Assembly: GCA_964365025.1 (NCBI GenBank)
Contig: CAYIOJ010000002.1
Span: 20,208 to 84,207, forward strand
Source: an uncultured Gammaproteobacteria bacterium
Lineage (GTDB): Bacteria; Patescibacteriota; Patescibacteriia; Magasanikbacterales; UBA10003
DNA: 64,000 bases
Direction of reading: 5' to 3'
The notes beneath the pieces were generated by a model. It was given only the letters and a program-made list of their open reading frames with translations, was not told the origin of the DNA and did not search any database. Shown one piece after another: positions 9,242 through 63,809 of the stretch. The position numbers and the translations under genes are program-made. The stretch's first letter is position 1. The number at the start of each line of letters is the position of its first letter.

Positions 9242-10649
9242 AATTTTGTTGTTTGTCATTTTAATTGCCGCGGCCGGCTGGGCGGTAAAATTTTTTTGGC
9301 AGTCAAAAATTAACCTTGGTCCGGCCGCATCGGAAAAAAGCGACAACGGATTGTCTCAAATTTTTAAAAATACATCTGAATTGAAAGAAGCGGTTTCATT
9401 GATGCCTAATTTTTTGGGTTACGACAAACCGCGCACTTATTTGGTTTTGTTTTTAAACAATGCCGAGATTCGGCCGGGCGGCGGATTCATCGGCAGTTAT
9501 GCTTTGGTAAAAATAGACAAAGGCAGATTGGCGTTTTTTGCCACCAGCGGTTCGGAAAATTTGGATTGGGCGGCGAGCGATGATTTTAAAGTTGAGCCGC
9601 CGGAAGCGCTGAAAAAATATCTGTATTTGACCAATTGGTATTTTCGCGATGCCAATTGGTCGCCGGATTTTCCGGAAAGCAGCCGCGCCGCGCTGTGGTT
9701 TTATCGGTTTGAGGGCGGCCAAGACGGTTCTAAAATTGACGGGGTCATCGGACTGACTCCGCGCGTAGTTGAAGAATTGGCCAAAATTACCGGACCGGTG
9801 ACAGTGGCTAACAAAGTTTTTAACGCGGAAAATATTATTGATGAATTGCAATATCAAGTGGAGGTCGGATTTTTGAAAGATGACACGCCGCGAGCGGAGC
9901 GCAAGGAACTGGTGGGGGATTTGGGGCGCGAGTTGCTTAAAAAAGTCGCGGATTTGCCGCCGTGGAAATGGGCCGGCATTTATTCAATGGCGCAAAAGAT
10001 GTTTGGGGAAAAACAGCTGATGATCTGGAGCGCCAATGATGCCATGGAGGCGGCTTTGGTCAAACAGGGGTGGGCCGGAGAAATTAAAAAAGTTGCCGGC
10101 GATTTTTTAATGGTAGTGGACGCGAATTTATCGGCCTTGAAAACTGATCCCAAGGTTGACCGCTTCATTCGTTATGAAATTAAGCCGGAAGGCGCGCGGC
10201 TGAAAGCTCGGGCAACAATTGCGTATAATCATCATGGGCAATTTGATTGGAAGACCACTCGTTATCGCACCTATACGCGCGTGTATGTTCCATTTGGCAG
10301 TGAATTAATCAGCTCAAGCGGTTTTGTGGAAAACGATAAAATCAAGAGCAAAGGAAAGATTGAGCCCGTGCCAGCCAAAGTAACCGAGGAATTGGGCCAG
10401 ACGGTGTTTGGCGGATTTATTGCCGTGGAACCGGGAGAAAAAGAAACTTTGATTTTAGAGTATTATTTGCCGGAAAAAATCGTTCAGCAAGCCGCTCGCG
10501 GGTTGTATACATTATTTGTTCAAAAGCAATTGGGCAGTGCGGCGTACAAATTGACAGTGGAAGCGAATTTTGGTAAAAAGGACGGGCAGGGAAATTTGCG
10601 CGCGGAAACGGATTTGAGAGAAGACAGAAGTTTCGACTCGTCATTCTGA
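9207..10649 (+). CDS. DUF4012-family envelope protein
   Basis: Has an N-terminal membrane anchor and the NNAEIRPGGGFIGSYA motif typical of DUF4012. The last three codons plus the stop are supplied by the repeat at 10639-10666. Confidence 0.55.
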   Translation: MVFMSPKRKLIKILLFVILIAAAGWAVKFFWQSKINLGPAASEKSDNGLSQIFKNTSELKEAVSLMPNFLGYDKPRTYLVLFLNNAEIRPGGGFIGSYALVKIDKGRLAFFATSGSENLDWAASDDFKVEPPEALKKYLYLTNWYFRDANWSPDFPESSRAALWFYRFEGGQDGSKIDGVIGLTPRVVEELAKITGPVTVANKVFNAENIIDELQYQVEVGFLKDDTPRAERKELVGDLGRELLKKVADLPPWKWAGIYSMAQKMFGEKQLMIWSANDAMEAALVKQGWAGEIKKVAGDFLMVVDANLSALKTDPKVDRFIRYEIKPEGARLKARATIAYNHHGQFDWKTTRYRTYTRVYVPFGSELISSSGFVENDKIKSKGKIEPVPAKVTEELGQTVFGGFIAVEPGEKETLILEYYLPEKIVQQAARGLYTLFVQKQLGSAAYKLTVEANFGKKDGQGNLRAETDLREDRSFDSSF

Positions 10650-10666
10650 GCGAAGCGAAGAATCTC
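10639..10666. repeat. GTCATTCTGAGCGAAGCGAAGAATC element, short variant of the GTCATTGCGAG...GAAGCAATC family
   Basis: The sequence is CGTCATTCTGAGCGAAGCGAAGAATCTC. It overlaps the stop codon of the upstream ORF. Confidence 0.7.
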
Positions 10667-10671
10667 TTTAT

Positions 10672-13445: not shown

Positions 13446-14657
13446 ATGTATATTAAGCGAAAAATTGAGGATGAAATTCTCAAATATATTAAAAGGCCGG
13501 AAATTATAGCTTTAGTTGGCCCTCGCCAGTGCGGGAAAACAACCACTATTAAAAAAATTTATAACGATTTGAAAAAAGCGATTTTTTTGACCTTTGAGGA
13601 TCAGGATACCCTTAATTTGTTTGAAAATAGTATCAAAAAGTTTATCAGTGTTTATGTCGCCGGCAACGACTATGTTTTTATTGATGAGTTTCAATATGCG
13701 AAAAACGGGGGAAAACTTTTGAAATATATCTACGACATCCACCACACGAAGATAATTATATCCGGGTCATCAGCTCTTGACTTGACTGTCAAGGCGGCGA
13801 AGCATCTGGTGGGCCGGGTGTTTGTTTTGGAAATGCTGCCGTTTGATTTTGGGGAATATCTGCTGTATCGCGACGGAGAATATTATGCCATTTATGAAAA
13901 AAATAAAATTGATTTAAGAAGTATTATCAAAAATTCATTAACCGAAAAACAAAGTAAAATTATAAAAAAATATTTTGAAGAATACGCCCTTTGGGGAGGA
14001 TATCCGGCCGTGGTTTTGTCAAAAACCGAGGAAGAAAAAAAAGAAGTTTTGAAAAATATCTACAATACTTATTTTTTGCGAGATGTGAAAGATATTTTGG
14101 GATTAGTCGATGATTACAAATTAGGAAAATTGATTAAGGCGCTGGCTCTGCAAATCGGTAATATGATTGAATATGGAGAACTAACGGAAGTTTCCGAATT
14201 TTCCTATCATACATTGAAAAAGTATCTTAATTTTTTGAGTAAAACATACATAGCCGGTTTTATTCATCCTTTTTACGGGAACAAAAGGAAAGAAATTGTG
14301 AAGAATAAAAAAGTGTATTTTTTTGATACCGGTCTGCGAAATCACATTGTAAATGATTTTCAGATATTAAGCGCGCGTCAAGATGTTGGCGCTTTGCTTG
14401 AAAATGCTTGTTTTATGCAGTTTATCAAAAACAAATATTCGCCGCAGTATTGGCGGGATAAGAATAAAAACGAAGTAGATTTTATTTTAGACATCGGAGA
14501 CGGAAAATATTCGGCTCTGGAAATAAAGTTAAATCAAAATAAATGTCGCCTGCCCGCCGTTTTTAAAGATAACTATAAAGATTTTTTGACCTTTTGCGCG
14601 TATTTTAATGAAACCAATAAAGAGAAAGAAAATGGTCTGTTTTTACCTCTGCTCTAA
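13446..14657 (+). CDS. AAA+ ATPase with a C-terminal DUF4143-like domain (COG1373-type)
   Basis: Walker A GPRQCGKTT, Walker B VFIDEF, and the C-terminal region typical of DUF4143. The gene is AT-rich. A divergent paralogue lies at 38498-39742. Confidence 0.65.
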   Translation: MYIKRKIEDEILKYIKRPEIIALVGPRQCGKTTTIKKIYNDLKKAIFLTFEDQDTLNLFENSIKKFISVYVAGNDYVFIDEFQYAKNGGKLLKYIYDIHHTKIIISGSSALDLTVKAAKHLVGRVFVLEMLPFDFGEYLLYRDGEYYAIYEKNKIDLRSIIKNSLTEKQSKIIKKYFEEYALWGGYPAVVLSKTEEEKKEVLKNIYNTYFLRDVKDILGLVDDYKLGKLIKALALQIGNMIEYGELTEVSEFSYHTLKKYLNFLSKTYIAGFIHPFYGNKRKEIVKNKKVYFFDTGLRNHIVNDFQILSARQDVGALLENACFMQFIKNKYSPQYWRDKNKNEVDFILDIGDGKYSALEIKLNQNKCRLPAVFKDNYKDFLTFCAYFNETNKEKENGLFLPLL

Positions 14658-14671
14658 GTGTGTTAATACAT

Positions 14672-14706
14672 GAGATTGCTTCATCGCTTCGTTCCTCGCA
14701 ATGACA
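14672..14706. repeat. GTCATTGCGAG...GAAGCAATC family element in reverse orientation
   Basis: The sequence is GAGATTGCTTCATCGCTTCGTTCCTCGCAATGACAG. Confidence 0.7.
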
Positions 14707-23514: not shown

Positions 23515-23590
23515 GCCGTTGTAGCTCAGCTGGTAGAGCAACTCCATGGTAAGGAGTAGGTCCGCGGTTCAATTCCGCGCAACGGCTCCA
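23515..23590 (+). tRNA. tRNA-Thr (GGU)
   Basis: GCCGTTG acceptor stem, anticodon arm ACTCC-ATGGTAA-GGAGT, T-loop TTCAATT, and an encoded CCA. Confidence 0.85.
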
Positions 23591-23595
23591 CTTTT

Positions 23596-23678
23596 GGGTG
23601 GGTACCGAAGCGGTCAAACGGGGCAGACTGTAAATCTGCTGGCTTTCGCCTTCCTAGGTTCGAATCCTAGCCCACCCA
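23596..23678 (+). tRNA. tRNA-Tyr (GUA)
   Basis: GGGTGGG acceptor stem, anticodon loop CTGTAAA, and a long variable arm. It closely resembles bacterial tRNA-Tyr. Confidence 0.85.
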
Positions 23679-23700
23679 GGTAAGATTATCAAGCGGTCAT

Positions 23701-23777
23701 GGGCGGCTAGCTCACTTGGTTAGAGCGCTACATTGACATTGTAGAGGTAACAGGTTCGATTCCTGTGCCGCCCACCA
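23701..23777 (+). tRNA. tRNA-Val (GAC)
   Basis: GGGCGGC acceptor stem, anticodon arm CTACA-TTGACAT-TGTAG, T-loop TTCGATT, and an encoded CCA. Confidence 0.85.
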
Positions 23778-23778
23778 C

Positions 23779-23850
23779 GCCGCCTTAGCTCAGTGGTAGA
23801 GCAATGCTTTTGTAAAGCAAAGGTCCTCGGTTCAAATCCGAGAGGCGGCT
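23779..23850 (+). tRNA. tRNA-Thr (UGU)
   Basis: GCCGCCT acceptor stem, anticodon loop TTTGTAA on a TGCT/AGCA stem, and T-loop TTCAAAT. Confidence 0.75.
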
Positions 23851-24042: not shown

Positions 24043-24051
24043 AGATTTTTC

Positions 24052-24123
24052 GTCATTGCGAGCCAGACTGTCCGAGAATTGTCATTGCGAGGAGCAAAGC
24101 GACGAAGCAATCTAGTAGCTCGG
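24052..24123. repeat. Two tandem partial copies of the GTCATTGCGAG...GAAGCAATC element
   Basis: GTCATTGCGAGCCAGACTGTCCGAGAATT followed by GTCATTGCGAGGAGCAAAGCGACGAAGCAATCTAG. Confidence 0.7.
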
Positions 24124-24176: not shown

Positions 24177-24250
24177 GGGGGCGTCGTATAGTGGTAGTAC
24201 TTTCCTCTCCAAAAGGAATAGCGTGGGTTCGATTCCTACCGCCCCTGCCA
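24177..24250 (+). tRNA. tRNA-Trp (CCA)
   Basis: GGGGGCG acceptor stem, anticodon arm TTCCT-CTCCAAA-AGGAA, T-loop TTCGATT, and an encoded CCA. Confidence 0.85.
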
Positions 24251-37069: not shown

Positions 37070-37099
37070 AAAACTCCTCTGATTTTCAGAGGAGTTTTT
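37070..37099. terminator. Bidirectional rho-independent terminator between the SPFH gene and convergent tsaE
   Basis: AAAACTCCTCTGA-TTT-TCAGAGGAGTTTTT. Confidence 0.8.
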
Positions 37100-37526
37100 G
37101 ATTTATTGAGATTTTTCTTTCGCCATTTTTTAGAATTGAGATTTTGATTTTTCGCGTTTGGAATTTTTTCAGCAGCGGCGCGATTTTTTCCGGCCATTCA
37201 ATGGCGCAGACAGTATCAGGCGCGGCCAAGTGCTCCAAAAGTCCGATGTCAATAACTTCTTGCGTTGAATGAAGACGATAGCAATCCAGATGAACAAATT
37301 GTTTTATCTTTTTTTGTTTTGGTAATTTATAAATTTTCATTAAATTAAAACTCGGACTGCGCACGGTTTGCTTAATGCCAAATCCAGACGCCAATCCTTT
37401 GATAAAAACAGTTTTGCCAGCTCCCAATTCTCCGGACAATGTTAAAATATCGCCCCCGCGCAAACCCGTGGCGATATTTTTGCCTAGATTGAAAGTTTGG
37501 GTTGTGTTATTGGAGTAGTAAAGCAT
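37086..37526 (-). CDS. tsaE: tRNA threonylcarbamoyladenosine biosynthesis ATPase TsaE
   Basis: Walker A GELGAGKT, then HLDCYRL and WPEKI motifs, 146 aa. It lies in the same open frame as folD upstream (see repeat 37531-37590). Confidence 0.75.
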   Translation of the reverse strand: MLYYSNNTTQTFNLGKNIATGLRGGDILTLSGELGAGKTVFIKGLASGFGIKQTVRSPSFNLMKIYKLPKQKKIKQFVHLDCYRLHSTQEVIDIGLLEHLAAPDTVCAIEWPEKIAPLLKKFQTRKIKISILKNGERKISINQKLL

Positions 37527-38435
37527 ATTTATGTCATTGCGAGCGCCTGCCTGCCGGCAGGCAGGAAGCGAAGCAATCTCGCGCCATTTTACAGTCAATA
37601 AATATACATTTTCCAAAAGCATGGCCACGGTCATTGGCCCCACGCCGCCTGGCACCGGTGTAATCCAGCCATTTTTGTCGCGCGTTGATTCAAAATTTAC
37701 ATCGCCGCAGATCGCGCCACTGCCAACCTGACCAGCAGGCAGGGGCAGGCGATTGATACCAACATCAATCACTATTGCGCCATCTTTAAAATTATCGCCA
37801 CGCAAAAAATTCGGTTGACCAACAGCAATGATTACAATATCAAATTGTTTGGTTATTGAGCCATCGAATTGTTTAGAGTGAAGATGGGAAGCGTCCAGTC
37901 CTTTTTGTTTTAAAAATAATTCCAAGGGCTCGGTAAAAGCATCGCTGTTGCCGATGATAAGGCATTTTTTCGCGTCCAGGCCGGCATTTTTTCGCGCGTC
38001 TTCAATTAAGCGCCAAATTGCTTTGGCTAAAACAGGTTCCACAGCCGGTTGGCCTTCTCGCATTTTTTTTACATTATCAGGATGAAATCCATCAACATCT
38101 TTGGTCGGGTCAATCGCGGCAATCACGCTGTTTGGATTGAGGGGGGATGGGAGTGGCAACTGTATTAAGATACCGTGAATGTTCGGCGCGGCGTTTAACT
38201 CTTGAATTTTTTGAATAATAGTTTCTTCCGCGGCGTCAGTTGGAAAAAGATATTTTTCAAAATATATTTCGGCCTCGGCGCAGGCCTTTTCTTTCAGGCG
38301 CACATACAAATGCGAGGCCGGATCATTGCCAACCAAAATAACACCAAGCCCCGGTGTAATTCCCAAGGCGGCGATTTTGTCTTTCAATTCCGCTCGGATT
38401 TTTTTGGCCAATGAGCGGCCGTCAATTAAACGCAT
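37527..38435 (-). CDS. folD: Bifunctional methylenetetrahydrofolate dehydrogenase/cyclohydrolase. There is no stop codon before tsaE
   Basis: Carries LVGNDPASHLYVRLKEKAC and PVPGGVGPMTVAMLLEN. The reading frame continues through the repeat into tsaE. Confidence 0.8.
37531..37590. repeat. GTCATTGCGAG...GAAGCAATC element with an internal CCTGCCTGCCGGCAGGCAGG module. It bridges folD and tsaE in-frame
   Basis: On the minus strand it translates without stops as KWREIASLPACRQAGARNDIN, joining the FolD C-terminus to the TsaE start Met. Confidence 0.75.
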
Positions 38436-42576: not shown

Positions 42577-42966
42577 ATGATGTGCGCGCAAAGCAGTGAT
42601 CATATCCATGTCAGTGATCACGCCTTGGAACGATTTCGTCAAAGGCGGGTACGACTGGGGTTGGATGATTTCGACGGCAACATAATGATGCTGGAGGCAG
42701 AACTTCGGCGTATCTTCGCTCAGAGTACGAAATTGGATATCACGAAATTGCGCAATTGGAGGGAACGCAGAAGGAAATATCCGGATTCAACTTATTTTCG
42801 CAACGAGCGTTTTGTTTTGGTGATGAATTTTGCCAACAACACGCTGGTCACTTGTTTTCTGTTTCAGGGACGCCGCGCCACGCGCCTCAAACCCAGAGAC
42901 CGCGATGAGCGAGCGCACCACAAGACGGTTCTGCGTCGGCACTTGCACGAAGGCGGAGAACTTTAA
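42577..42966 (+). CDS. Basic hypothetical protein inside GC-rich island 2 (possibly a small toxin-like or nucleic-acid-binding protein)
   Basis: 129 aa, Arg-rich, with AGGAGG and AAGGGGG Shine-Dalgarno elements upstream. The region is about 52% GC. The N-terminal HVSDHALERFRQRRVRL is faintly like DUF4258/RelE-type small proteins. Confidence 0.35.
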   Translation: MMCAQSSDHIHVSDHALERFRQRRVRLGLDDFDGNIMMLEAELRRIFAQSTKLDITKLRNWRERRRKYPDSTYFRNERFVLVMNFANNTLVTCFLFQGRRATRLKPRDRDERAHHKTVLRRHLHEGGEL

Positions 42967-42994: not shown

Positions 42995-44620
42995 TCATTT
43001 GCCTCGACGGCTTCGTCGGGGCAGTTTTTTTACCATGTAAGTTTTTTGTAGTTTGTAACCAAGTTTTTTATAATATCCGCGCACGCCAATGCCAGAGATA
43101 ACTGCGATTGTATCCGCGCCGTGTTCGCGGGCGATTTTTTCCGCTTCGGCAATCAAGCGTCGACCCAAACCGCGATGTTGGCTGGCTTTTTTTGACCTTT
43201 GGCCAAGCGGCATAAGTTGGCCGTAAGTGTGCAGTTCGCGGATAAAAGCCGGATACAGGCCCCGGGCGTCCAGGCGCAGGCGGCAGAAAGCAAAAACCGC
43301 GCGCCGCGCCGTATCTTCAAAACTTAAAAAATATTCCGTGCCGCCGGACGCTTCATATTGATCAATAAATAATTTGATTTTGGCCGGATGACTAAGTTGT
43401 TGGTGCCCGATTTCTCGGCAACGCAAACATTGGCAGGTGAGTCCGTCTTCAACCATTTTAGCTTGAATTATTTGACGCAAGTTGGTCGCTAGATTGCCCG
43501 CGATTATTTCCGTGGAAGGAATGTCGCGAATCAGACGCGAGATTCGGCAATAGCGCGGAATAATTTTTGATTTTACTTTCATCAGCATGGCAATCAGTTT
43601 TTTATCAGCGTAGGGTTTGAATTGGCCTTTTTTATACCAGCGGTACAGTTCGGAATTGATAACAACCGTGCAGGGATAAATTTTAATCATATCCGGCCGC
43701 AAATCAGGGTCGGCAAAAATTTTTTCAAACATTTTGTAATCCTTGGTCGGAGTGGAGCCTGGCAATTGCGGCATTAAATGAAAATCAATTTTAAATCCAT
43801 AGCCGCGCAATAACGCGGTTGCTTTTTTCGCGTCTTCAATAGTATGCCCGCGTTTTGTTAGGCGCAAAATTTTGTTATCAGTATGTTGTATTCCCATTTC
43901 CACGCGAGTGCAACCCAAGATACGCATTTGCCCGGCTGTTTTATGAGTGATTAAATCCGGCCGTGTTTCCAAAGTCAGGCCGATCAGACGATGAGCCGCG
44001 GTTTCATTTTTTTTCTGCGTCATTGCGAGGGAGCGCAGCGACCGAAGCAATTTCGTTGATTTTGGTACAACGAGATTGCTTCGCTTCGCTCGCAATGACG
44101 CGGTAAACTCATTTGTCGCCCTAAAACACTCTTTGATAAACCAAACTTGATATTTCCAAGGATAAACGTTCCAGCTGCCGCCTTTTACAATAAGTTCAAT
44201 CTTGTCGGTTAGGTGCCCATTGTTGTAAAGCATCTGTAAGCGGGAAATAACTTGATTATACGGATTAAATTTGTTAAAATAAGCGCGTTGGGCAGCCGGC
44301 TCGCTTTTAAGATAACTTTTTGGCATGCCCGGCTCCAATGGGCAATAAATACACTGTCCCGGGCATGGCCAGGGCTTGGTCAAAACAGTGACGATGGCCA
44401 CGCCTGAAAGTGTGCGCACCGCGCGTTTTTGCAAAATGGATTCCAACAGCGCCGAGGATTTTGTTTTTTTTCCAGCAACCAGACGCCTATATTCTTTTAA
44501 AACTTCGGCTGTGGATGGCGCGCTGCGGAAATTCAAACGCGACCAACTGTTTTTCAATTCGTCAAGTCGTGGGCGCGTCAGGCCTTTCTGTCGGATTAAT
44601 TTTTTGATGAAAGTTTTCAT
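42995..44620 (-). CDS. elp3: Elp3-like radical-SAM/GNAT enzyme (elongator catalytic subunit homologue)
   Basis: Radical-SAM region (CPGQCIYCP) followed by a C-terminal GNAT domain (QHRGLGRRLIAEAEKIA). The ORF opens at 44722 but the Met at 44620 (MKTFIKK) is the likelier start. It contains an in-frame repeat at 44038-44120. Confidence 0.7.
   Translation of the reverse strand: MKTFIKKLIRQKGLTRPRLDELKNSWSRLNFRSAPSTAEVLKEYRRLVAGKKTKSSALLESILQKRAVRTLSGVAIVTVLTKPWPCPGQCIYCPLEPGMPKSYLKSEPAAQRAYFNKFNPYNQVISRLQMLYNNGHLTDKIELIVKGGSWNVYPWKYQVWFIKECFRATNEFTASLRAKRSNLVVPKSTKLLRSLRSLAMTQKKNETAAHRLIGLTLETRPDLITHKTAGQMRILGCTRVEMGIQHTDNKILRLTKRGHTIEDAKKATALLRGYGFKIDFHLMPQLPGSTPTKDYKMFEKIFADPDLRPDMIKIYPCTVVINSELYRWYKKGQFKPYADKKLIAMLMKVKSKIIPRYCRISRLIRDIPSTEIIAGNLATNLRQIIQAKMVEDGLTCQCLRCREIGHQQLSHPAKIKLFIDQYEASGGTEYFLSFEDTARRAVFAFCRLRLDARGLYPAFIRELHTYGQLMPLGQRSKKASQHRGLGRRLIAEAEKIAREHGADTIAVISGIGVRGYYKKLGYKLQKTYMVKKLPRRSRRGK
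44038..44120. repeat. Complete palindromic GTCATTGCGAG...GAAGCAATC element (83 bp) inserted in-frame in elp3
   Basis: The sequence is CGTCATTGCGAGGGAGCGCAGCGACCGAAGCAATTTCGTTGATTTTGGTACAACGAGATTGCTTCGCTTCGCTCGCAATGACG. On the minus strand it reads ASLRAKRSNLVVPKSTKLLRSLRSLAM. Confidence 0.75.
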
Positions 44621-44622
44621 GT

Positions 44623-45375
44623 ATGCATTTGAGCGAGGCAAAAAAGATAATAAAAAAAGTTGAAAATGATTACGACGCCGTGGCGCGCGACTGGGATACA
44701 TCGCGATTTTCCGCCAGAGCAAGTCAGATTAAAATTGCCAATCAAATAAAAAATGGCGAGAGATTGCTGGATGTTGGCTGCGGCAATGGTGTATTTTATC
44801 CTGTTTTAGCTGATAAGTCAATCAATTATGTGGGAATGGACATTAGTAAAAAATTATTGGCGTTGGCCAGTCAAAAAGCGCGAAAAATTAAGAGCGGGTC
44901 CAAGGTAAAATTTATTAAAGGCAGTATTACCAAATTGCCGTTTAGAAATAATCAATTTGATTGGGTGTGCGTTTTCGCGGTTTTGCATCATATTCCAAGT
45001 GAGGAATTACGATTGCGCTCGGCGCAAGAAATTTGGCGCGTGTTGAAACCCAGTGGCAAAGTAATAGTGACTGTTTGGAATATGTTTTCCAATTGGGCTG
45101 AAAAAAAATTTAACATCAATGAACAATTGAAAAATATTCACGAAGGATTTGACCATGGCGACGTAATAATTCCGTGGAAGGGGACTGTTGGCAAAGTAAT
45201 TCAAAGATACATGCGCGCGTTTGCTAAAAATGAATTGAGCAAATTATTTAAAGACGCGGGATTTAAAAAGGTTTCGACATATTACGCCATCAAAGAAATA
45301 GGAGTAAAATCACAGAATGCCAAAGAGGGGAAGAATTTGGTTTTGATGGCAAAAAAAGCAGGCGGAGGCAGATAA
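44623..45375 (+). CDS. Class I SAM-dependent methyltransferase, Trm9-like
   Basis: The N-terminal VENDYDAVARDWDTSRFSAR resembles the Trm9/ALKBH8 N-terminal pattern. Motif I is LDVGCGNGVF. The start lies 3 nt from the divergent elp3 start. Confidence 0.6.
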   Translation: MHLSEAKKIIKKVENDYDAVARDWDTSRFSARASQIKIANQIKNGERLLDVGCGNGVFYPVLADKSINYVGMDISKKLLALASQKARKIKSGSKVKFIKGSITKLPFRNNQFDWVCVFAVLHHIPSEELRLRSAQEIWRVLKPSGKVIVTVWNMFSNWAEKKFNINEQLKNIHEGFDHGDVIIPWKGTVGKVIQRYMRAFAKNELSKLFKDAGFKKVSTYYAIKEIGVKSQNAKEGKNLVLMAKKAGGGR

Positions 45376-45422
45376 TTTTTGAAGCGATGATATGTTTGAG
45401 CCAGATCGAGGCATCCTGCTAT

Positions 45423-45499
45423 AGGGGGCGCGCAAATATCTTTTTTTGCGCTGCGGACTCATCGCCGCGACTGCAAAAAAAGAAATTTGCGCGCCCCCT
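45423..45499. repeat. Type-2 palindromic element: outer inverted repeat AGGGGGCGCGCAAAT, inner TTTTTTTGC...GCAAAAAAA around a GCTGCGGACTCATCGCCGCGACTGC core
   Basis: Nested palindromes. The core matches the reverse complement of the core of the element at 47006-47073. Confidence 0.7.
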
Positions 45500-45509
45500 A
45501 ATCAAGAAT

Positions 45510-46994
45510 ATGGATTTAGCGACGATTAAAAAAATTCACTGCGTAGGCATTGGCGGAATTGGCGTATCAGCTATTGCCAAGTTTTTTTTGTCGCTCGGCG
45601 CGACTGTGACTGGTTCCGATGTTTCATCCTCGGTTATTACGCAGGATTTGGAAAAACGCGGAGTGAAAATTTTTTATGGACACAAGGCCGAAAATGTTTC
45701 AAATGATGTTGATTTAATAATTTATTCTCCTGCTGTGCCCAAAGACAATCCCGAGCGGCAAAAAGGCATCCAAGAATTATCTTATCCTGAATTTTTGGGA
45801 GAATTATCAAAACAATATTTTACCATCGCCATTTCCGGCACGCACGGCAAAAGCACCACTACGGCTTTGATTGGCTTGATTTTGGAGGCGGCGGGTTTTG
45901 ATCCATTGGTAATTGTCGGGTCGCGCGTGCCCGGCTGGGAGTTGGGCAATATCCGCCTTCCCGCGTCATTGCGAGCGCCTGCCCCTGCCTACCGGCAGGC
46001 AGGTGCCGACAAGGCAGGCGAAGCCGAAGCAATCCCGAACAATAAAAAAATTTTTGTGGTAGAAGCCTGCGAACATCAGGCCAATATGCTCAATTTGTGT
46101 CCGCAGGCCGTGGTAATCACCAATATAGAGCCGGACCATTTGGATTTTTATGGCAATTTTGATAATGTTAAAAGCGCTTTTCAAAAGTTCGTTCGTTTGG
46201 TTCCTAAAAATGGGCTGGTGATTTTTAATGGCGATAGAGAGGCGGAATTGGATTGGAATTATGCCAGGCCAAGCATGTGGAAATTAATTTGGCAGGTTTT
46301 ATTCAGCCGCCGCGTCAAATGGCGCAGTTTTGGTTTTAAGACGCCCAATGATTATCAGGCTCTGGATAGAGAAGTAAAAAATGGCAATCAGTTTTTTAAT
46401 GTTCAAAGTGGGTTGTCCAAATTTCATGTAAAATTAAGTATCCCCGGTAAGTTTAACGCGTATAATGCTTTGGCAGCCATGGCTGTGGTGCTGGAACTTG
46501 GCGCACCAGTGGAAGTTTGTCAGAAAGTTTTAGCGAATTTCAAAGGTATTTGGCGCCGGTTTGAAATTTTAAAAGAAAAGCCATTGATTATTTCCGATTA
46601 TGGCCACCACCCGACAGCTATTGCCGAAACTGTGAAGGCCGCGCGCGAATTTTATCCCGGTCGGCGCGTGGTTTTGGTGTATCAGCCGCATCAGCATCAT
46701 AGAACAAAAATGTTATTCAATGATTTTGTTTCGGCTTTGGCTTTACCAGATGTATTAATTTTATCAGATATATATGATGTGGCAGGCAGAGAAGAGGTAA
46801 CAGATCAAGATGTAAGTTCTGAAAAGATTTTGGAGGCGATAAAAGTGTCGGGTGGAGCGGGCGAGTATTTTTACAGTGGCGATTTGGCCACCACCGAACG
46901 ATTAGCGCGAGAGATTATAAAAGAAAGCGATGTTATATTGGTGATGGGAGCTGGGGATGTAGATATCATTGCCAGGCATCTATCTATATTTTGA
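45510..46994 (+). CDS. murC: UDP-N-acetylmuramate--L-alanine ligase
   Basis: Carries GIGGIGVSAIA, GTHGKSTTT and a C-terminal Mur ligase domain. The conserved start is the Met at 45510. A 26-aa in-frame repeat insertion lies at 45964-46034. Confidence 0.85.
   Translation: MDLATIKKIHCVGIGGIGVSAIAKFFLSLGATVTGSDVSSSVITQDLEKRGVKIFYGHKAENVSNDVDLIIYSPAVPKDNPERQKGIQELSYPEFLGELSKQYFTIAISGTHGKSTTTALIGLILEAAGFDPLVIVGSRVPGWELGNIRLPASLRAPAPAYRQAGADKAGEAEAIPNNKKIFVVEACEHQANMLNLCPQAVVITNIEPDHLDFYGNFDNVKSAFQKFVRLVPKNGLVIFNGDREAELDWNYARPSMWKLIWQVLFSRRVKWRSFGFKTPNDYQALDREVKNGNQFFNVQSGLSKFHVKLSIPGKFNAYNALAAMAVVLELGAPVEVCQKVLANFKGIWRRFEILKEKPLIISDYGHHPTAIAETVKAAREFYPGRRVVLVYQPHQHHRTKMLFNDFVSALALPDVLILSDIYDVAGREEVTDQDVSSEKILEAIKVSGGAGEYFYSGDLATTERLAREIIKESDVILVMGAGDVDIIARHLSIF
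45964..46034. repeat. GTCATTGCGAG...GAAGCAATC element (with a CCTGCC...GGCAGG module) inserted in-frame in murC
   Basis: The sequence is CGTCATTGCGAGCGCCTGCCCCTGCCTACCGGCAGGCAGGTGCCGACAAGGCAGGCGAAGCCGAAGCAATCC. It translates as ASLRAPAPAYRQAGADKAGEAEAIPN between conserved MurC segments. Confidence 0.75.
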
Positions 46995-48943: not shown

Positions 48944-48947
48944 TAAT

Positions 48948-48977
48948 GTCATTCTGAGCCCGTAGGGCGAAGAATTT
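48948..48977. repeat. GTCATTCTGAGC...GAAGAAT short variant of the element family
   Basis: The sequence is GTCATTCTGAGCCCGTAGGGCGAAGAATTTT. Confidence 0.6.
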
Positions 48978-49001
48978 TAATTTAATTTTAAAAAATAAAA
49001 T

Positions 49002-61921: not shown

Positions 61922-62320
61922 ATGATTTCTATGCGAGGAGAATCATTAATGGGTTACACCTACGATGAGGTAGAGGCGTACCGCCATGGCGCTTCTCTTT
62001 TGATTTGTTTCGCGGTCATTTTAATGTTTTTTGGCGGTTATTTTTCAGCGCAATTGGAATGGAAATGGCTGCAAATTTCCGCCTTGCTCGCGGCCTGGCA
62101 AACATTTCAGTATTTGGGCTCCATGGAAGTAAAAATGGATTTTTACACGATGATTATCAGAGTTATTGCGTCGCTTTTGGTCGGTCTGGTTTTCTGGTTG
62201 ATTTTTTTATGGGGTTTTTATGTCGGACCCAAGCACGCTTGGTGGGCCTTTTTGCCATTGGTTTTGGTTTATTTTATTTCGGCTAAATACATTCACAAGC
62301 CTTACAAACGCGGTCATTGA
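61922..62320 (+). CDS. Hypothetical 4-TM membrane protein
   Basis: 132 aa with four hydrophobic helices. No family recognised. Confidence 0.4.
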   Translation: MISMRGESLMGYTYDEVEAYRHGASLLICFAVILMFFGGYFSAQLEWKWLQISALLAAWQTFQYLGSMEVKMDFYTMIIRVIASLLVGLVFWLIFLWGFYVGPKHAWWAFLPLVLVYFISAKYIHKPYKRGH

Positions 62321-62321
62321 T

Positions 62322-63722
62322 ATGATTTCTATTGATTTCAGCTATTTTGATTGGTTTCTCAATTTTATTACCGTGGCCCCGCCGACCGAAGTGTATATCT
62401 ACCTTTTCACTCACGGCGGTTGGCTAATTTTATTTTTTGTCGTCTTTAAATCTTTTTGGCAGTTTTATCATCTTTCCCGCACCGGCGCGTATCTCGGAAA
62501 ACTGCCGTGGGTGCTTCTGGCAGTGGACATTCCCAAAGGCAATGAACAGACGCCAAAAGCGGTGGAGCAGATATTCGCGCACTTGGCCGGCGCTCACAAA
62601 ACACCTGATTTGGAGGAACAGTTTTTATACGGCTTTATGCCGGCTTGGTTTTCGTTTGAAATCGTGAGCATTGAGGGCTATATTCAATTTATTATCCGTA
62701 CTATTAAAAAATATCGCGATTTGGTGGAAGCCTCCATTTACGCGCAATACCCGGAAGCGGAAATCACTGAAATTGAAGATTATACCAATGATTTTCCGTC
62801 GCATTTTCCCAATAAAGAATACCAACTGTTCGGCACTGAATATATTCTTACCAATAAAGAGCAGAGTTATCCCATCCGCACTTACAAAGATTTTGAGCAC
62901 ACGGCCGCGGAAGATATTTTTAAAGACCCTATTGCCGCGCTTTTGGAAACATTCAGCCGTGTGGGCAAGGGCGAATTTACCGGTTTGCAGATTTTAGTGA
63001 AACCAATCAGCAACAGATGGAATAATTGGAAAGAGCACGGCGAGGCGGTGGTAAAAAAAATGATTGGAGCCAAGGTAAAAATTAAAGATTCTATTATTAG
63101 CAAACTTGGCAGCTTGCCCGGACAAGTTTTGGATACAACAGTTGAAGCAGTGGCCGGATACGCGGTGGGAGCGGAAGAAGCAATGAATAAAAAAGAAGAA
63201 GCGCCCTCTTTGATGTTGCACTTGCCGCCCGGATTTAAAGTTAACGTGGAAAAAGTGGAAACAAAAATCAGCAAGATTTGTTTTGCCACGAAAATCCGCT
63301 GGATTTATATGGCGAAGAAAGACATCTATAATCGCGCCAAAACCAGCTATGGCGTGACCGGCGCTTTTAAACAATATAATGTAGAAGATATGAACGGCCT
63401 TAAACCTGAATTTGCCTCAATTGGCACGCATGTGCATTATTTTATGATAAAGACGCGTCAAAATTGGCGCCGCACTCGCCTGATTAACGCTTATAAAGCG
63501 CGGAGCCGCTGGAAGGGCGCCATGGAATATCTTTTAAACATTGAAGAGCTGGCTTCGTTGTGGCACTTCCCGATGCTTACGGTCAAGGCGCCGATGGTCG
63601 CCGGCACTCAAGCCAAACGCGGCCAGCCGCCGGCTACATTGCCGGTGGAGAGAGAAGGTGGCTTGTTAAGGCCGGTGGAGAAAAAGGCTAAAGGCGCTCC
63701 GCCGCCGAATTTGCCGGTATAA
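62322..63722 (+). CDS. Hypothetical membrane-anchored protein with a large soluble domain
   Basis: N-terminal TM helix (WLILFFVVFKSFW) and a ~400-aa soluble region with no nucleotide-binding motifs. It precedes a coupling-protein-like ATPase gene. Confidence 0.4.
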   Translation: MISIDFSYFDWFLNFITVAPPTEVYIYLFTHGGWLILFFVVFKSFWQFYHLSRTGAYLGKLPWVLLAVDIPKGNEQTPKAVEQIFAHLAGAHKTPDLEEQFLYGFMPAWFSFEIVSIEGYIQFIIRTIKKYRDLVEASIYAQYPEAEITEIEDYTNDFPSHFPNKEYQLFGTEYILTNKEQSYPIRTYKDFEHTAAEDIFKDPIAALLETFSRVGKGEFTGLQILVKPISNRWNNWKEHGEAVVKKMIGAKVKIKDSIISKLGSLPGQVLDTTVEAVAGYAVGAEEAMNKKEEAPSLMLHLPPGFKVNVEKVETKISKICFATKIRWIYMAKKDIYNRAKTSYGVTGAFKQYNVEDMNGLKPEFASIGTHVHYFMIKTRQNWRRTRLINAYKARSRWKGAMEYLLNIEELASLWHFPMLTVKAPMVAGTQAKRGQPPATLPVEREGGLLRPVEKKAKGAPPPNLPV

Positions 63723-63728
63723 GTATAT

Positions 63729-63809
63729 TGTCATTGCGAGGAGGCGAAGCCGACGAAGCAATCTCATATCTAGAATTGCGAGATTGCTTCGCTACGCTCG
63801 CAATGACAG
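63729..63809. repeat. Complete palindromic GTCATTGCGAG...GAAGCAATC element (81 bp), intergenic
   Basis: The sequence is GTCATTGCGAGGAGGCGAAGCCGACGAAGCAATCTCATATCTAGAATTGCGAGATTGCTTCGCTACGCTCGCAATGAC. Confidence 0.75.

Follow-up and report, generated by a model that had tools for sequence, protein, structure and literature searches.

A CGTC-tagged palindromic repeat dimer carried in frame within the Elp3 gene of a Candidate Phyla Radiation bacterium

Introduction

How does a complete 83-bp palindrome come to be translated from end to end inside an enzyme gene, and does its open frame tell us anything about the repeat family to which it belongs? The locus in question lies in a 64-kb window (the whole stretch of DNA analyzed here), where an Elp3 gene on the minus strand reads through the palindrome. 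The original prediction held that a stop-free frame across such an element was unlikely by chance and that it implied a family constrained to be translatable.

REPs are small, hairpin-forming repeats that are probably selfish or mobile. Their CGTC-tagged super-family (Di Nocera, De Gregorio & Rocco 2013, BMC Genomics 14:522; PMC3733652) is defined by an unpaired CGTC, TGTC or CCTC tag, a stem that opens with A-T and T-A pairs, and an unpaired 3-nt tail, mostly CCA. The stem measures 8-9 bp and the loop 4-5 nt; loops deviate from this in CGTC-1 of Bradyrhizobium and in part of CGTC-3. The units occur mainly as head-to-head dimers, including heterodimers, that can fold into one long hairpin; they have no associated transposase, and occasional intragenic dimers encode 20-30 aa (PMC3733652). 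CGTC REPs are spread across many phyla and are abundant in Bradyrhizobium, sphingomonads and Rickettsiales, with the Rickettsia repeats RPE-4 and RPE-6 corresponding to CGTC-4 and CGTC-1, respectively, according to Di Nocera et al. (PMC3733652). RPEs are palindromic repeats found in frame in unrelated housekeeping genes, where they are translated at fold-compatible sites (PMC10969869, PMC3733652).

Results

The host gene and the site of the insert

The gene and the codons of the insert are placed as follows.

42995-44620, minus strand: Elp3 gene (tRNA U34 cm5-modification radical-SAM/GNAT enzyme), assigned from TIGR01211, PDB matches and a structural model
44018-44101, minus strand: insert codons for ASLRAKRSNLVVPKSTKLLRSLRSLAMT; ORF residues 208-235, model residues 174-201

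The encoded protein matches TIGR01211 over its full length (546.6 bits, cut-off 350, covering positions 4-522 of the 522 in the profile) and PDB entries 6ia8/6iaz with E ~1e-124. Its AlphaFold2 model has a pLDDT of 89.7 and reaches a Foldseek target-normalised TM-score (TMt) of 0.91 to archaeal Elp3 6ia8/6iad (range 0.85-0.91). The start is probably the ATG at 44620; the listed ORF, 42995-44722(-), extends to a TTG at 44722. Read-through of the palindrome on the minus strand, as originally described, is confirmed: the quoted peptide ASLRAKRSNLVVPKSTKLLRSLRSLAM(T) is the exact product of residues 208-235 of this ORF, and the reading across the palindrome is (T)ASLRAKRSNLVVPKSTKLLRSLRSLAMT.

The insert had been placed between the radical-SAM and GNAT halves of the protein, which is incorrect. 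It sits within the radical-SAM domain, past the CxxxxCxxC cluster and ahead of both the NETAxHR..ETRPD strand and Radical_SAM_C (Pfam 343-424), and the GNAT part begins near residue 512. In the AlphaFold2 model, pLDDT values over residue blocks 171-200 are 65/51/80, with coil at 178-194, and the final insert residues merge into a helix at 195-205. Of the two outcomes that had been considered for the insert, a surface loop or a helix, the loop describes most of it (low-confidence coil) and the helix only its last residues. The peptide is strongly basic (+9, with nine basic residues). Among homologs, loop length at this site ranges from 11 to 60 aa; the permissive site is a surface linker, Lys-rich and hypervariable, that joins two helices within the radical-SAM domain.

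Anatomy of the palindrome

A strong 83-bp palindrome within the Elp3-like gene was recovered both by reading the sequence and from its inverted repeats, although the coordinates first given (44038-44120) were ~20 nt too far right. Counting the CGTC/GACG end bases, it occupies 44018-44100; its 81-bp stretch from GTCATTGCGAG to CTCGCAATGAC covers 44019-44099, and an imperfect extension spans 44011-44107. The folding energy of the single strand is -45.9 kcal/mol for RNA (z = -7.45) and -32.7 kcal/mol for DNA (z = -8.08), in each case matched by 0 of 200 dinucleotide shuffles. Two CGTC-tagged REP units joined head to head make up the element, as listed here.

44018-44100, no strand assigned: head-to-head CGTC REP dimer, 83 bp (from sequence, inverted repeats, fold z-scores and core enrichment)
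44018-44054, plus strand: REP unit A, segmented as tag C+GTC, ATTGCGAG, variable segment GGAGCGCAGCGACC, GAAGCAAT and tail TTC
44055-44071, no strand assigned: spacer, the loop of the long hairpin, whose ends lengthen the inner stem (CGTTG...CAACG)
44072-44100, minus strand: REP unit B, segmented as CGTC, ATTGCGAG, variable segment CGAAGC, GAAGCAAT and tail CTC

With variable segments of 14 nt and 6 nt, the Elp3 copy is a heterodimer. The 14-nt segment of unit A recurs in the MurC unit of a relative (L001), and the CGAAGC of unit B forms GCGAAGC. Both arms carry the tag form GCGTCATTGC.

A widespread repeat family

Membership in a repeat family, also part of the original prediction, is borne out by the core GTCATTGCGAG, which occurs nine times in the window (0.95 expected). 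Doublets of the family were found at no fewer than 120 genome loci from many phyla, in 110 viral contigs and in at least 120 metagenome contigs. All doublets retrieved are head-to-head, with tags pointing outward. Among 89 doublets, GTCAT is preceded by C in 69 cases and by T in 18, and position +1 on the opposite side holds G in 75; in the window, all 11 units have CGTC or TGTC tags. Of 167 distinct doublets, 124 end in a CCA(N) tail, and the CTC/TTC variant of the window's Elp3 copy is also common in metagenome contigs. The two arms have complementary tails in 108 doublets, compared with 53.8 when partners are permuted. Each unit's stem starts ATTGC…GCAAT, with five Watson-Crick pairs followed by GAG/GAA purine positions, and encloses an inner segment of 6-50 nt that is often GCGAAGC or a GC hairpin of its own. 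Sub-families show compensatory stem changes (ATCCT/AGGAT, ATTCT/AGAAT, ATCGC/GCGAT).

These features agree with CGTC REPs in the tag, the A-T/T-A stem start, the 3-nt tail, the head-to-head heterodimeric arrangement and the lack of a transposase. The units differ in having five Watson-Crick pairs around an inner segment of 6-50 nt instead of an 8-9 bp stem with a 4-5 nt loop, and in the CTC/TTC tail of the window genome, where CCA prevails in CGTC REPs. CPR/Patescibacteria, Chloroflexi, Cyanobacteria and Firmicutes lie outside the five phyla given for CGTC REPs (PMC3733652). The family is also present in one Rickettsiales MAG and one Tisiphia endosymbiont. In a plasmid collection, it occurs at 40 or more places on a Novosphingobium megaplasmid, where it carries no annotation.

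Rfam returned nothing for the element at the gathering threshold, and in E-value mode miRNA precursors were all it matched, as generic hairpins scoring well under their thresholds. The insert peptide in five frames had no NCBIfam match at E <= 10, a search in which short queries are filtered hard and whose models may not include RPE domains. A protein search for host proteins with the concatenated element peptide gave no candidates, and literature text matches to the element's DNA motif strings were unrelated primers only.

Seven further loci in the 64-kb window carry units of the family.

45964-46037, plus strand: lone CGTC unit in frame within MurC, enclosing a long hairpin rich in GC, …LPASLRAPAPAYRQAGADKAGEAEAIPNN…
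37532-37582, plus strand: lone TGTC unit where FolD and TsaE meet; minus-strand read-through gives REIASLPACRQAGARND
63729-63808, no strand assigned: intergenic doublet, 78 nt plus TGTC tags, beginning a few nt past the stop of ORF 62220-63722
14672-14706, minus strand: intergenic single unit, 15 nt past the stop of ORF 13446-14657
24051-24112, plus strand: a truncated and then a full unit, lying between a small ribosomal-protein-like ORF/tRNA cluster and tRNA-Trp
10639-10668, plus strand: sister sub-family unit, CGTC-ATTCTGAG-CGAAGC-GAAGAAT-CTC
48947-48978, plus strand: sister sub-family unit, TGTC-ATTCTGAG…GAAGAAT, a few nt past the PvlArgDC stop

The unit at the FolD/TsaE junction fuses both genes into one 449-aa ORF, and a DUF4012 gene ends within the unit at 10639-10668, from which it takes its final three codons and its TGA stop.

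The element was inserted and is inherited in frame

We considered whether the palindrome might be an ancestral or chance feature of the loop, or whether the gene might be a pseudogene or an assembly artefact. The last residues, SLAMTQKKNE, do resemble the ancestral helix start ELLKAQKKNE of homologs. Against an ancestral origin, the DNA belongs to a repeat family whose identical cores recur elsewhere in the window and at hundreds of unrelated loci, and homologs lack the element. A HMMER alignment with archaeal Elp3 leaves a 21-residue gap at the insert, and more than 90 Elp3 homologs (nearly all of 120) have a Lys-rich linker there. These include an ortholog (P0005/L001) that is 81% identical and syntenic, with a Lys-rich linker in place of the element. 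The original prediction had named matching residues in other Elp3 proteins as the sign of an ancestral segment; no such residues were found, and the element is an insertion. A sequencing error, which it had also raised, is excluded, since homology stays in frame on both sides and four independent assemblies have the same arrangement. The ORF is intact, and the regions flanking the insert show dN/dS of 0.11-0.19 at dS 0.49-0.90, so the Elp3 gene is still functional and under constraint. Taken with these observations, an ancestral, degenerate or artefactual origin has a negligible probability.

Four close orthologs (L003-L006) carry the element at identical junctions and with homologous spacers, to which the spacer of the Elp3 copy is ~52% identical by hand count. 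The five orthologous copies measure 75, 81, 81, 87 and 102 nt, all divisible by 3, even though the indels that distinguish their internal segments are not. Shared junctions, homologous spacers and lengths divisible by 3 together indicate a single inherited event that is still translated. Two independent insertions, or transfer by recombination, are possible alternatives, because the element-free ortholog groups by dS with the element-bearing L003 and L005, and its placement in the tree has a bootstrap of 40%.

Other CPR Elp3 genes hold different palindromes in the same loop, which we verified on the DNA. Across different Elp3 insertions, all three forward frames are in use (SLRAKRSN, VILNEAK and CHPERSEGS). 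Repeated invasion of the Elp3 loop by differing palindromes across the CPR is a new result.

An open frame is not unusual for this family

If the family had been selected to be stop-free and coding-compatible so as to live in genes, open frames should be in excess. Some counts do lean this way: the Elp3 copy is open in four of six frames and one family unit in five of six; ORFs read through three of the eight unit-bearing loci in the window, and a fourth unit gives a gene its final codons and stop; and spacers contain 123 stop trinucleotides, compared with 228 in mononucleotide shuffles. A given frame of a shuffled 81-mer is nonetheless open with p = 0.27, and 39% of random 27-codon windows of the 64-kb sequence are open, so that a stop-free reading of the Elp3 copy is not the improbable event it had been taken for.

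The six-frame stop count across copies of the family, suggested originally as a check, was run on 167 distinct doublets from many phyla and revealed no deficit of stops: 3.24 of six frames are open per doublet, against 3.07 in dinucleotide-preserving shuffles. Doublet lengths modulo 3 are flat (59/59/49), and in the invariant core one frame per strand always contains TGA. Metagenome doublets (n = 78) are almost always intergenic or at gene ends, with almost none within genes, and in the two doublets that are read through in low-GC metagenome contigs the length is no multiple of 3. At doublets in high-GC genomes and viral contigs, 35 candidate read-through ORFs were rejected as spurious-looking, being Arg/Ala/Gly-rich antisense frames by composition. 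The intergenic copies in the window begin 0-15 nt past stop codons, a placement typical of REPs (PMC3733652).

The inferred constraint on translatability is therefore not supported, as stop content matches the shuffle expectation, lengths have no mod-3 bias and different Elp3 insertions are read in all three forward frames, and we regard selection of the family for translation as very improbable. Selection on the host gene (survivorship) and the dinucleotide composition of the element are enough to account for the open frame. Survivorship in a permissive loop explains the Elp3 case with no special translatability needed, and nothing shows that the palindromic repeat is built to be translated.

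Core sequences outlast synonymous divergence

Among the five orthologs, the element cores are 95.2% identical, with 97/94/94% identity at codon positions 1/2/3. In the flanks, identity is 64-75% at third positions and 59-74% at four-fold sites. Core identity that outlasts synonymous divergence is a new result. The inner segments and the encoded peptide differ greatly among the same orthologs (SLRAKRSNLVVPKSTKLL… vs SLRPANRRGSNLVNPEPTGLLRLLRQLAELL… vs SLRGAKQRSNLISKPRDCF…), and the inner variable segments are common to copies at other loci. A purely neutral passenger should have decayed; something thus acts on the nucleotide sequence, either conversion or selection. We favour the view that the cores are kept by repeated gene conversion from other genomic copies, or by recognition of the hairpin at the nucleotide level.

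The conserved cores could also be read as exaptation, in which the basic 27-aa loop serves Elp3 (for example in tRNA contact) or the hairpin has a regulatory or structural role in mRNA or DNA. Conservation of the cores at all codon positions over dS 0.5-0.9, nine basic residues that replace a Lys-rich linker, the stability of the RNA hairpin and retention of the element in five lineages would all fit such a role. Opposed to it are the divergence of the inner segments and peptide, the existence of an element-free ortholog, unrelated palindromes in the same loop elsewhere, and the finding of no terminator-like or promoter-like site at the Elp3 element. Gene conversion, moreover, would conserve the cores equally well, variable segments being common to other loci. 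Exaptation is accordingly improbable in our estimation. At the protein level, the basic peptide may have a role, resembling as it does the Lys-rich linker that it replaced; for the enzyme, the insert is probably neutral or nearly neutral.

A bolder reading sees in the intragenic REP dimer a dual-use element instead of a decaying passenger: it would be translated, and selection would at the same time preserve it as nucleotide sequence. This reading draws on the contrast between 26-41% synonymous-site change and the 95% identity of the four cores, and on the swapped inner segments; we consider it unlikely.

Discussion

With a probability of roughly 85%, we conclude that the Elp3 palindrome is a CGTC REP dimer that inserted in a permissive loop and has been inherited in frame. 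In the course of events that we propose, the element would have landed in the Lys-rich linker of Elp3 in an ancestor of a small Magasanikbacteria-like (CPR) clade, with the palindrome replacing most of the linker. The gene would have stayed open because the inserted copy had a length divisible by 3 and was read in one of its four stop-free frames. The 27-28 extra residues would form a mostly disordered basic loop, the final ones replacing the beginning of the helix that follows. The insertion would then have been tolerated and inherited, and selection on Elp3 since that time would keep the element in frame.

A REP/RPE-type palindrome read in frame within genes is an already known kind of event, and we do not describe a new kind of system. 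RPEs offer a close parallel: the element is an in-frame insertion at a fold-compatible site, and several genes are affected (Elp3, MurC and the FolD/TsaE junction) in one small, reduced genome. The parallel, drawn from descriptions of RPEs, differs in its CPR host, which is not Rickettsia, and in size, as the classic RPE-1 is ~150 bp.

REPINs, REP doublets mobilised by RAYT transposases (Bertels & Rainey 2011, PMC3116915), likewise consist of two inverted REP units with a short spacer that form a one-hairpin unit, and the co-varying arm tails of the present family fit that likeness. Their tag is GTAG and they have a cognate RAYT (IS200/IS605-like) gene, whereas the tags here are CGTC/TGTC and no RAYT-like ORF was found in the 64-kb window with approximate query sequences of limited sensitivity. 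Neither was there a recurrent neighbouring ORF within 300 bp among the 120 genome loci listed. An association with GIY-YIG proteins (YhbQ/COG2827) was rejected, given no recurrent neighbouring ORF and no phmmer match in ~1 Mb, again with approximate queries and limited sensitivity. The flanks of 89 doublets show no target-site duplication, only a C…G extension of the palindrome.

Intragenic MITEs such as Coxiella QMITE, ERIC and Correia elements are short and non-autonomous, can be read through in frame and are able to alter proteins (PMC5896051, PMC10969869). The Elp3 element shares with them a short, non-autonomous repeat readable in frame; it differs in having neither a target-site duplication nor IS-derived terminal inverted repeats, and in consisting, as a whole, of two short hairpin units.

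Our findings add the Candidate Phyla Radiation to the groups in which this phenomenon was known, namely Rickettsia and some few other bacteria, with a single 64-kb stretch showing such repeats in Elp3, in MurC and at the FolD/TsaE junction. For annotators, they account for odd basic CPR peptides such as SLRAKRSNL…SLAMT and CHPERSEGS, and they warn that inserts of such palindromes split Pfam domain matches. The orthologous filled and empty sites provide material for studying how transposase-less CGTC repeats are maintained and whether sequence context targets them. If the hairpin is recognised in situ by a maintenance or mobilisation machinery, the CPR would be a tractable case for the persistence and movement of CGTC REPs. 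Such a machinery, if real, would be common to phyla, the cores being the same from Bradyrhizobium to the CPR, and the Elp3 loop would be a targeted hot spot, more than a permissive site.

A palindromic REP dimer inside the radical-SAM barrel of Elp3

The palindrome occupies 83 bp at 44018-44100 (CGTCATTGCGAG … CTCGCAATGACG), which confirms the element described in the original prediction and moves it from 44038-44120, coordinates that lay ~20 nt too far right. Its parts are as follows.

Components of the palindrome (+ strand reading)
44019-44029, outer core of arm A, GTCATTGCGAG
44030-44043, variable segment of arm A, GGAGCGCAGCGACC
44044-44052, inner core on the arm A side, GAAGCAATT
44053-44073, spacer, 21 nt
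44074-44082, inner core of arm B, GATTGCTTC
44083-44088, variable segment of arm B, GCTTCG
44089-44099, outer core of arm B, CTCGCAATGAC

Folding energies of the single-stranded element are -45.9 kcal/mol for RNA (z = -7.45) and -32.7 kcal/mol for DNA (z = -8.08), values that none of 200 dinucleotide shuffles matched.

The minus-strand ORF 42995-44722 runs through the element as T-ASLRAKRSNLVVPKSTKLLRSLRSLAMT-Q, the same peptide that had been quoted from the sequence alone. This ORF is Elp3: it matches TIGR01211 (546.6 bits; profile positions 4-522 of 522) and archaeal, bacterial, and eukaryotic Elp3 structures (E-values 1e-124 to 5e-87). Homologs indicate that the start is likely the ATG at 44620 rather than the listed TTG; starting at the TTG, the ORF shares 100 nt (44623-44722) with the divergent methyltransferase gene. 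The insert comprises ORF residues 208-235. Because it is flanked upstream by the Fe-S cluster motif and a helix ending …WFIKECFRATNEF, and downstream by QKKNETAAHRLIGLTLETRPD, we place it inside the radical-SAM barrel, and not between the radical-SAM and GNAT halves as first proposed; the Pfam Radical_SAM match is split by the insert, resuming only at residue 239 (profile position 73), and the GNAT domain starts near residue 512. On the opposite strand, Elp3 is adjoined by a 129-aa ORF without Pfam match (42577-42966, + strand), conserved in four of five related loci (L001, L003, L004, and L005), with a 131-aa ORF nearby in L006.

An AlphaFold2 model of Elp3 built on 81 sequences (pLDDT 89.7, pTM 0.87) superposes on solved Elp3 structures, the target-normalised TM-score being 0.91 for 6ia8/6iad and 0.85 for the human ELP3 of 8ptx. 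Here the insert (model residues 174-201) is predicted to begin with one helical turn and to continue as coil (178-194; block pLDDT 65 and 51). Its last residues (…SLRSLAMT), standing where relatives have an ELLKAQKKNE-type helix start, would join helix 195-205, which continues as QKKNETAAH.

The palindrome is inserted, not ancestral

The HMMER alignment to Methanocaldococcus infernus Elp3 shows a 21-residue gap opposite the element. Among the best 120 Elp3 homologs, all from CPR/Patescibacteria (closest named: Candidatus Magasanikbacteria), a hypervariable segment of 11-60 residues, typically Lys-rich, separates CF.A.N from Q.KNE. The 81%-identical Elp3 P0005 carries QSNKKHENQNLAKT at the element site and no palindrome, and its locus (L001) has the gene order of the window (MurC, methyltransferase, Elp3, 129-aa ORF, SHMT, FolD, TsaE). 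The four closest proteins (82-86% identical; loci L003-L006) contain a palindrome at identical junctions (…N[DE]F-xx / (C/T)GTCATT(G/A)CGA… …CTCGCAATGAC(G/A) / CA(G/A)…, slashes marking the junctions). On these alignments, the palindrome is an insertion in Elp3; matching residues in homologs, as expected of an ancestral segment, were not found, the site holding a Lys-rich linker or a gap instead. Since the empty site still encodes an ancestral-type linker, the element replaced ~11 codons and was not merely added. At this empty site (L001 6001-7584: …CAGTCA-33 nt-AAAACGCAAAAA…), GTCA and ACGCA lie exactly at the positions of the element ends in filled sites, possibly representing microhomology at the site of insertion or replacement.

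Common junctions and homologous spacers (~52% identity by hand count) of the five filled sites point to one ancestral insertion event. A second independent insertion, or transfer by recombination, is possible: within the six-gene Elp3 clade (bootstrap 100%), the placement of the empty P0005 reaches only 40%, and by dS it clusters with two element-bearing genes.

A widespread family related to CGTC-tagged REPs

The core GTCATTGCGAG occurs nine times in the window (0.95 expected). The whole-doublet pattern was found at at least 120 loci when searching one genome per species and at 110 loci in IMG/VR viral contigs, and a CTC-tail variant at at least 120 loci in metagenome contigs. Genome matches listed include Bradyrhizobium (many), sphingomonads, Rickettsiales, and a Tisiphia endosymbiont, and further Chloroflexi, Patescibacteria, Bacteroidota, Ignavibacteriota, Zixibacteria, Nostoc, Planctomycetes, Spirochaetes, and Firmicutes. 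All doublets are built on one plan: (C/T)GTC – ATTGCGAG – variable segment – GAAGCAAT – tail – spacer – mirror image. Of 89 doublets, 69 have C and 18 have T 5' of GTCAT. CCA forms the tail of 124 of 167 doublets, and in 108 of these 167 the tails of both arms match each other (53.8 with permuted partners). Sister sub-families share the scaffold with compensatory stem changes, ATTCT/AGAAT in the window (at 10639 and 48947) and ATCCT/AGGAT and ATCGC/GCGAT in other Elp3 genes. Neither an Rfam family for the element nor an NCBIfam model matching the insert peptide was found.

The 11-nt and 9-nt cores are identical across many bacterial phyla (L007-L126) and the 110 viral contigs (L127-L236). A Novosphingobium resinovorum megaplasmid holds the family in at least 40 places, none annotated, and viral contig L201 has three tandem doublets ~156 bp apart.

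Di Nocera, De Gregorio and Rocco (2013; PMC3733652) described a super-family of REPs with a CGTC (sometimes TGTC) tag, a stem starting with AT, and a 3-nt CCA tail, which mostly form head-to-head dimers (often heterodimers), lie just after coding regions, and have no associated transposase. Intragenic copies encode 20-30 amino acids, more than half being dimers or groups, and in Rickettsia conorii CGTC-1 equals RPE-6 and CGTC-4 equals RPE-4 (PMC3733652). Our element shares the tag, the start of the stem, the tail, and the dimeric organisation of this super-family and likewise lacks a transposase, which supports its membership, with CGTC-1 to CGTC-4 compared by description only. Its stem and loop dimensions deviate: in the unit, only five base pairs are Watson-Crick and purine-purine positions come next, and the inner segment, of 6-50 nt, is often GCGAAGC or a GC-rich hairpin of its own. 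Hirao and colleagues described GCGAAGC as a DNA mini-hairpin of very high stability. Approximate queries revealed no transposase-like neighbor (120 genome loci; ~1 Mb for YhbQ-type; the window for RAYT). We rejected a REPIN in the strict sense (no GTAG tag, no RAYT gene found) and a MITE, as no target-site duplication was seen at the flanks of 89 doublets. Our literature search found no report of such elements in CPR genomes, which is absence of evidence only.

Survival of in-phase copies suffices to explain the open frame

Four of the six frames of the window copy are stop-free, both closed frames containing the TGA of the invariant …GCAATGAC. The original prediction considered the absence of stops in the host gene's frame unlikely by chance and the elements constrained to be translatable. 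Neither view is borne out. In a shuffled copy, each frame has a 0.27 probability of lacking stops, and 39% of random 27-codon windows in the 64-kb sequence are open. Counting stops in six frames across 167 distinct doublets gave a mean of 3.24 open frames, matching dinucleotide-preserving shuffles (3.07), and doublet lengths modulo 3 are distributed 59/59/49. Stop trinucleotides are indeed rarer in spacers than in mononucleotide shuffles (123 versus 228), as might be expected of elements built to be translated, but this deficit is not seen once dinucleotide content is kept. Among 78 metagenome-contig doublets, nearly all are intergenic or touch gene ends only; in high-GC genomes, read-through ORFs look spurious by amino-acid composition. 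The frame of the unit also differs among Elp3 insertions (SLRAKRSN…, VILNEAK…, CHPERSEGS…).

With about every second frame open and one in three lengths in phase, a noticeable fraction of random insertions in a tolerant loop would survive. Such survival, together with selection on the host gene, would explain the open frame. The elements in the five filled sites measure 75, 81, 81, 87, and 102 nt, all divisible by 3, although single segments differ by indels that by themselves would shift the frame (L006 versus L003: -4 in the spacer, -8 in one variable segment), which indicates selection for the downstream frame. The element-bearing gene is still functional, with dN/dS of 0.11-0.19 at dS 0.49-0.90 for all pairs (Elp3 outside the loop). 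The original observation is correct apart from its coordinates and its interpretation partly so, the open frame having been over-read.

For REP entry, ssDNA hairpin-based transposition or template switching is usually proposed. In our proposal, a REP dimer would enter the Lys-rich linker and be tolerated by Elp3 as a surface excursion, and we regard the encoded peptide as a passenger. Both mechanism and kind of event match those known for Rickettsia RPEs and for CGTC REPs within genes (PMC3733652, PMC10969869).

Core conservation at the DNA level

Across the five orthologs, the four element cores share 95.2% identity (400/420 pairwise positions), about equally at codon positions 1, 2, and 3 (97, 94, and 94%), versus only 64-75% at third positions and 59-74% at four-fold sites of the flanking gene. 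Between orthologs, the variable segments defy alignment, but they reappear at other loci: window arm A and the MurC unit of L001 share an identical 14-nt segment. Pure neutrality does not account for these features of the DNA, and we infer either recurrent gene conversion by other copies of the family or a direct nucleotide-level constraint on the hairpin.

Further units and repeated invasion of the Elp3 loop

Eleven CGTC/TGTC units lie at eight loci of the window; five of these loci are at gene 3' ends, starting 0-15 nt past the stop codon or overlapping it.

Selected units in the window
10639-10668, ATTCT/AGAAT-stem unit that ends a DUF4012 gene, contributing its last three codons and TGA stop
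24051-24112, truncated unit with a full unit directly after it, between a small ribosomal-protein-like ORF/four-tRNA cluster (23515-23850) and tRNA-Trp (24177-24250)
37532-37582, single TGTC unit, reverse orientation, FolD/TsaE junction, ORF 37086-38435 (- strand)
45964-46037, + strand, single CGTC unit in frame in MurC ORF 45387-46994, long GC-rich internal hairpin, ASLRAPAPAYRQAGADKAGEAEAIP
48947-48978, ATTCT/AGAAT-stem unit a few nt past the stop of a pyruvoyl arginine decarboxylase gene

The MurC unit is present in two of three orthologs examined (L001 and L006, with differing internal segments); L003 lacks it and keeps CCGCAATCC, possibly a deletion footprint. The TGTC unit removes the FolD stop, fusing FolD and TsaE into one 449-aa ORF (Pfam THF_DHG_CYH and TsaE). 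At this junction, L003 has a unit in opposite orientation, within which FolD ends, and L001 has none, both genes overlapping.

By eye, at least 15 of the best 120 Elp3 homologs show CGTC-type signature peptides in the same loop, and several others carry different long inserts. A DNA check of four (L357, L358, L359, and L360) revealed palindromes in all: a doublet of the same family that differs in position and frames, a hybrid dimer with ATTGC and ATCGC stems, an ATCCT/ATTCT-stem doublet (CHPERSEGS…LRMT), and an unrelated G/C-rich palindrome encoding PPLGKGRLGG. These palindromes mark the loop as a recurrent landing or survival site. Translated intragenic REP/RPE palindromes are already known as a type of event, of which this is a further case; the nucleotide-level core conservation and the repeated invasion of one Elp3 loop add modest interest.
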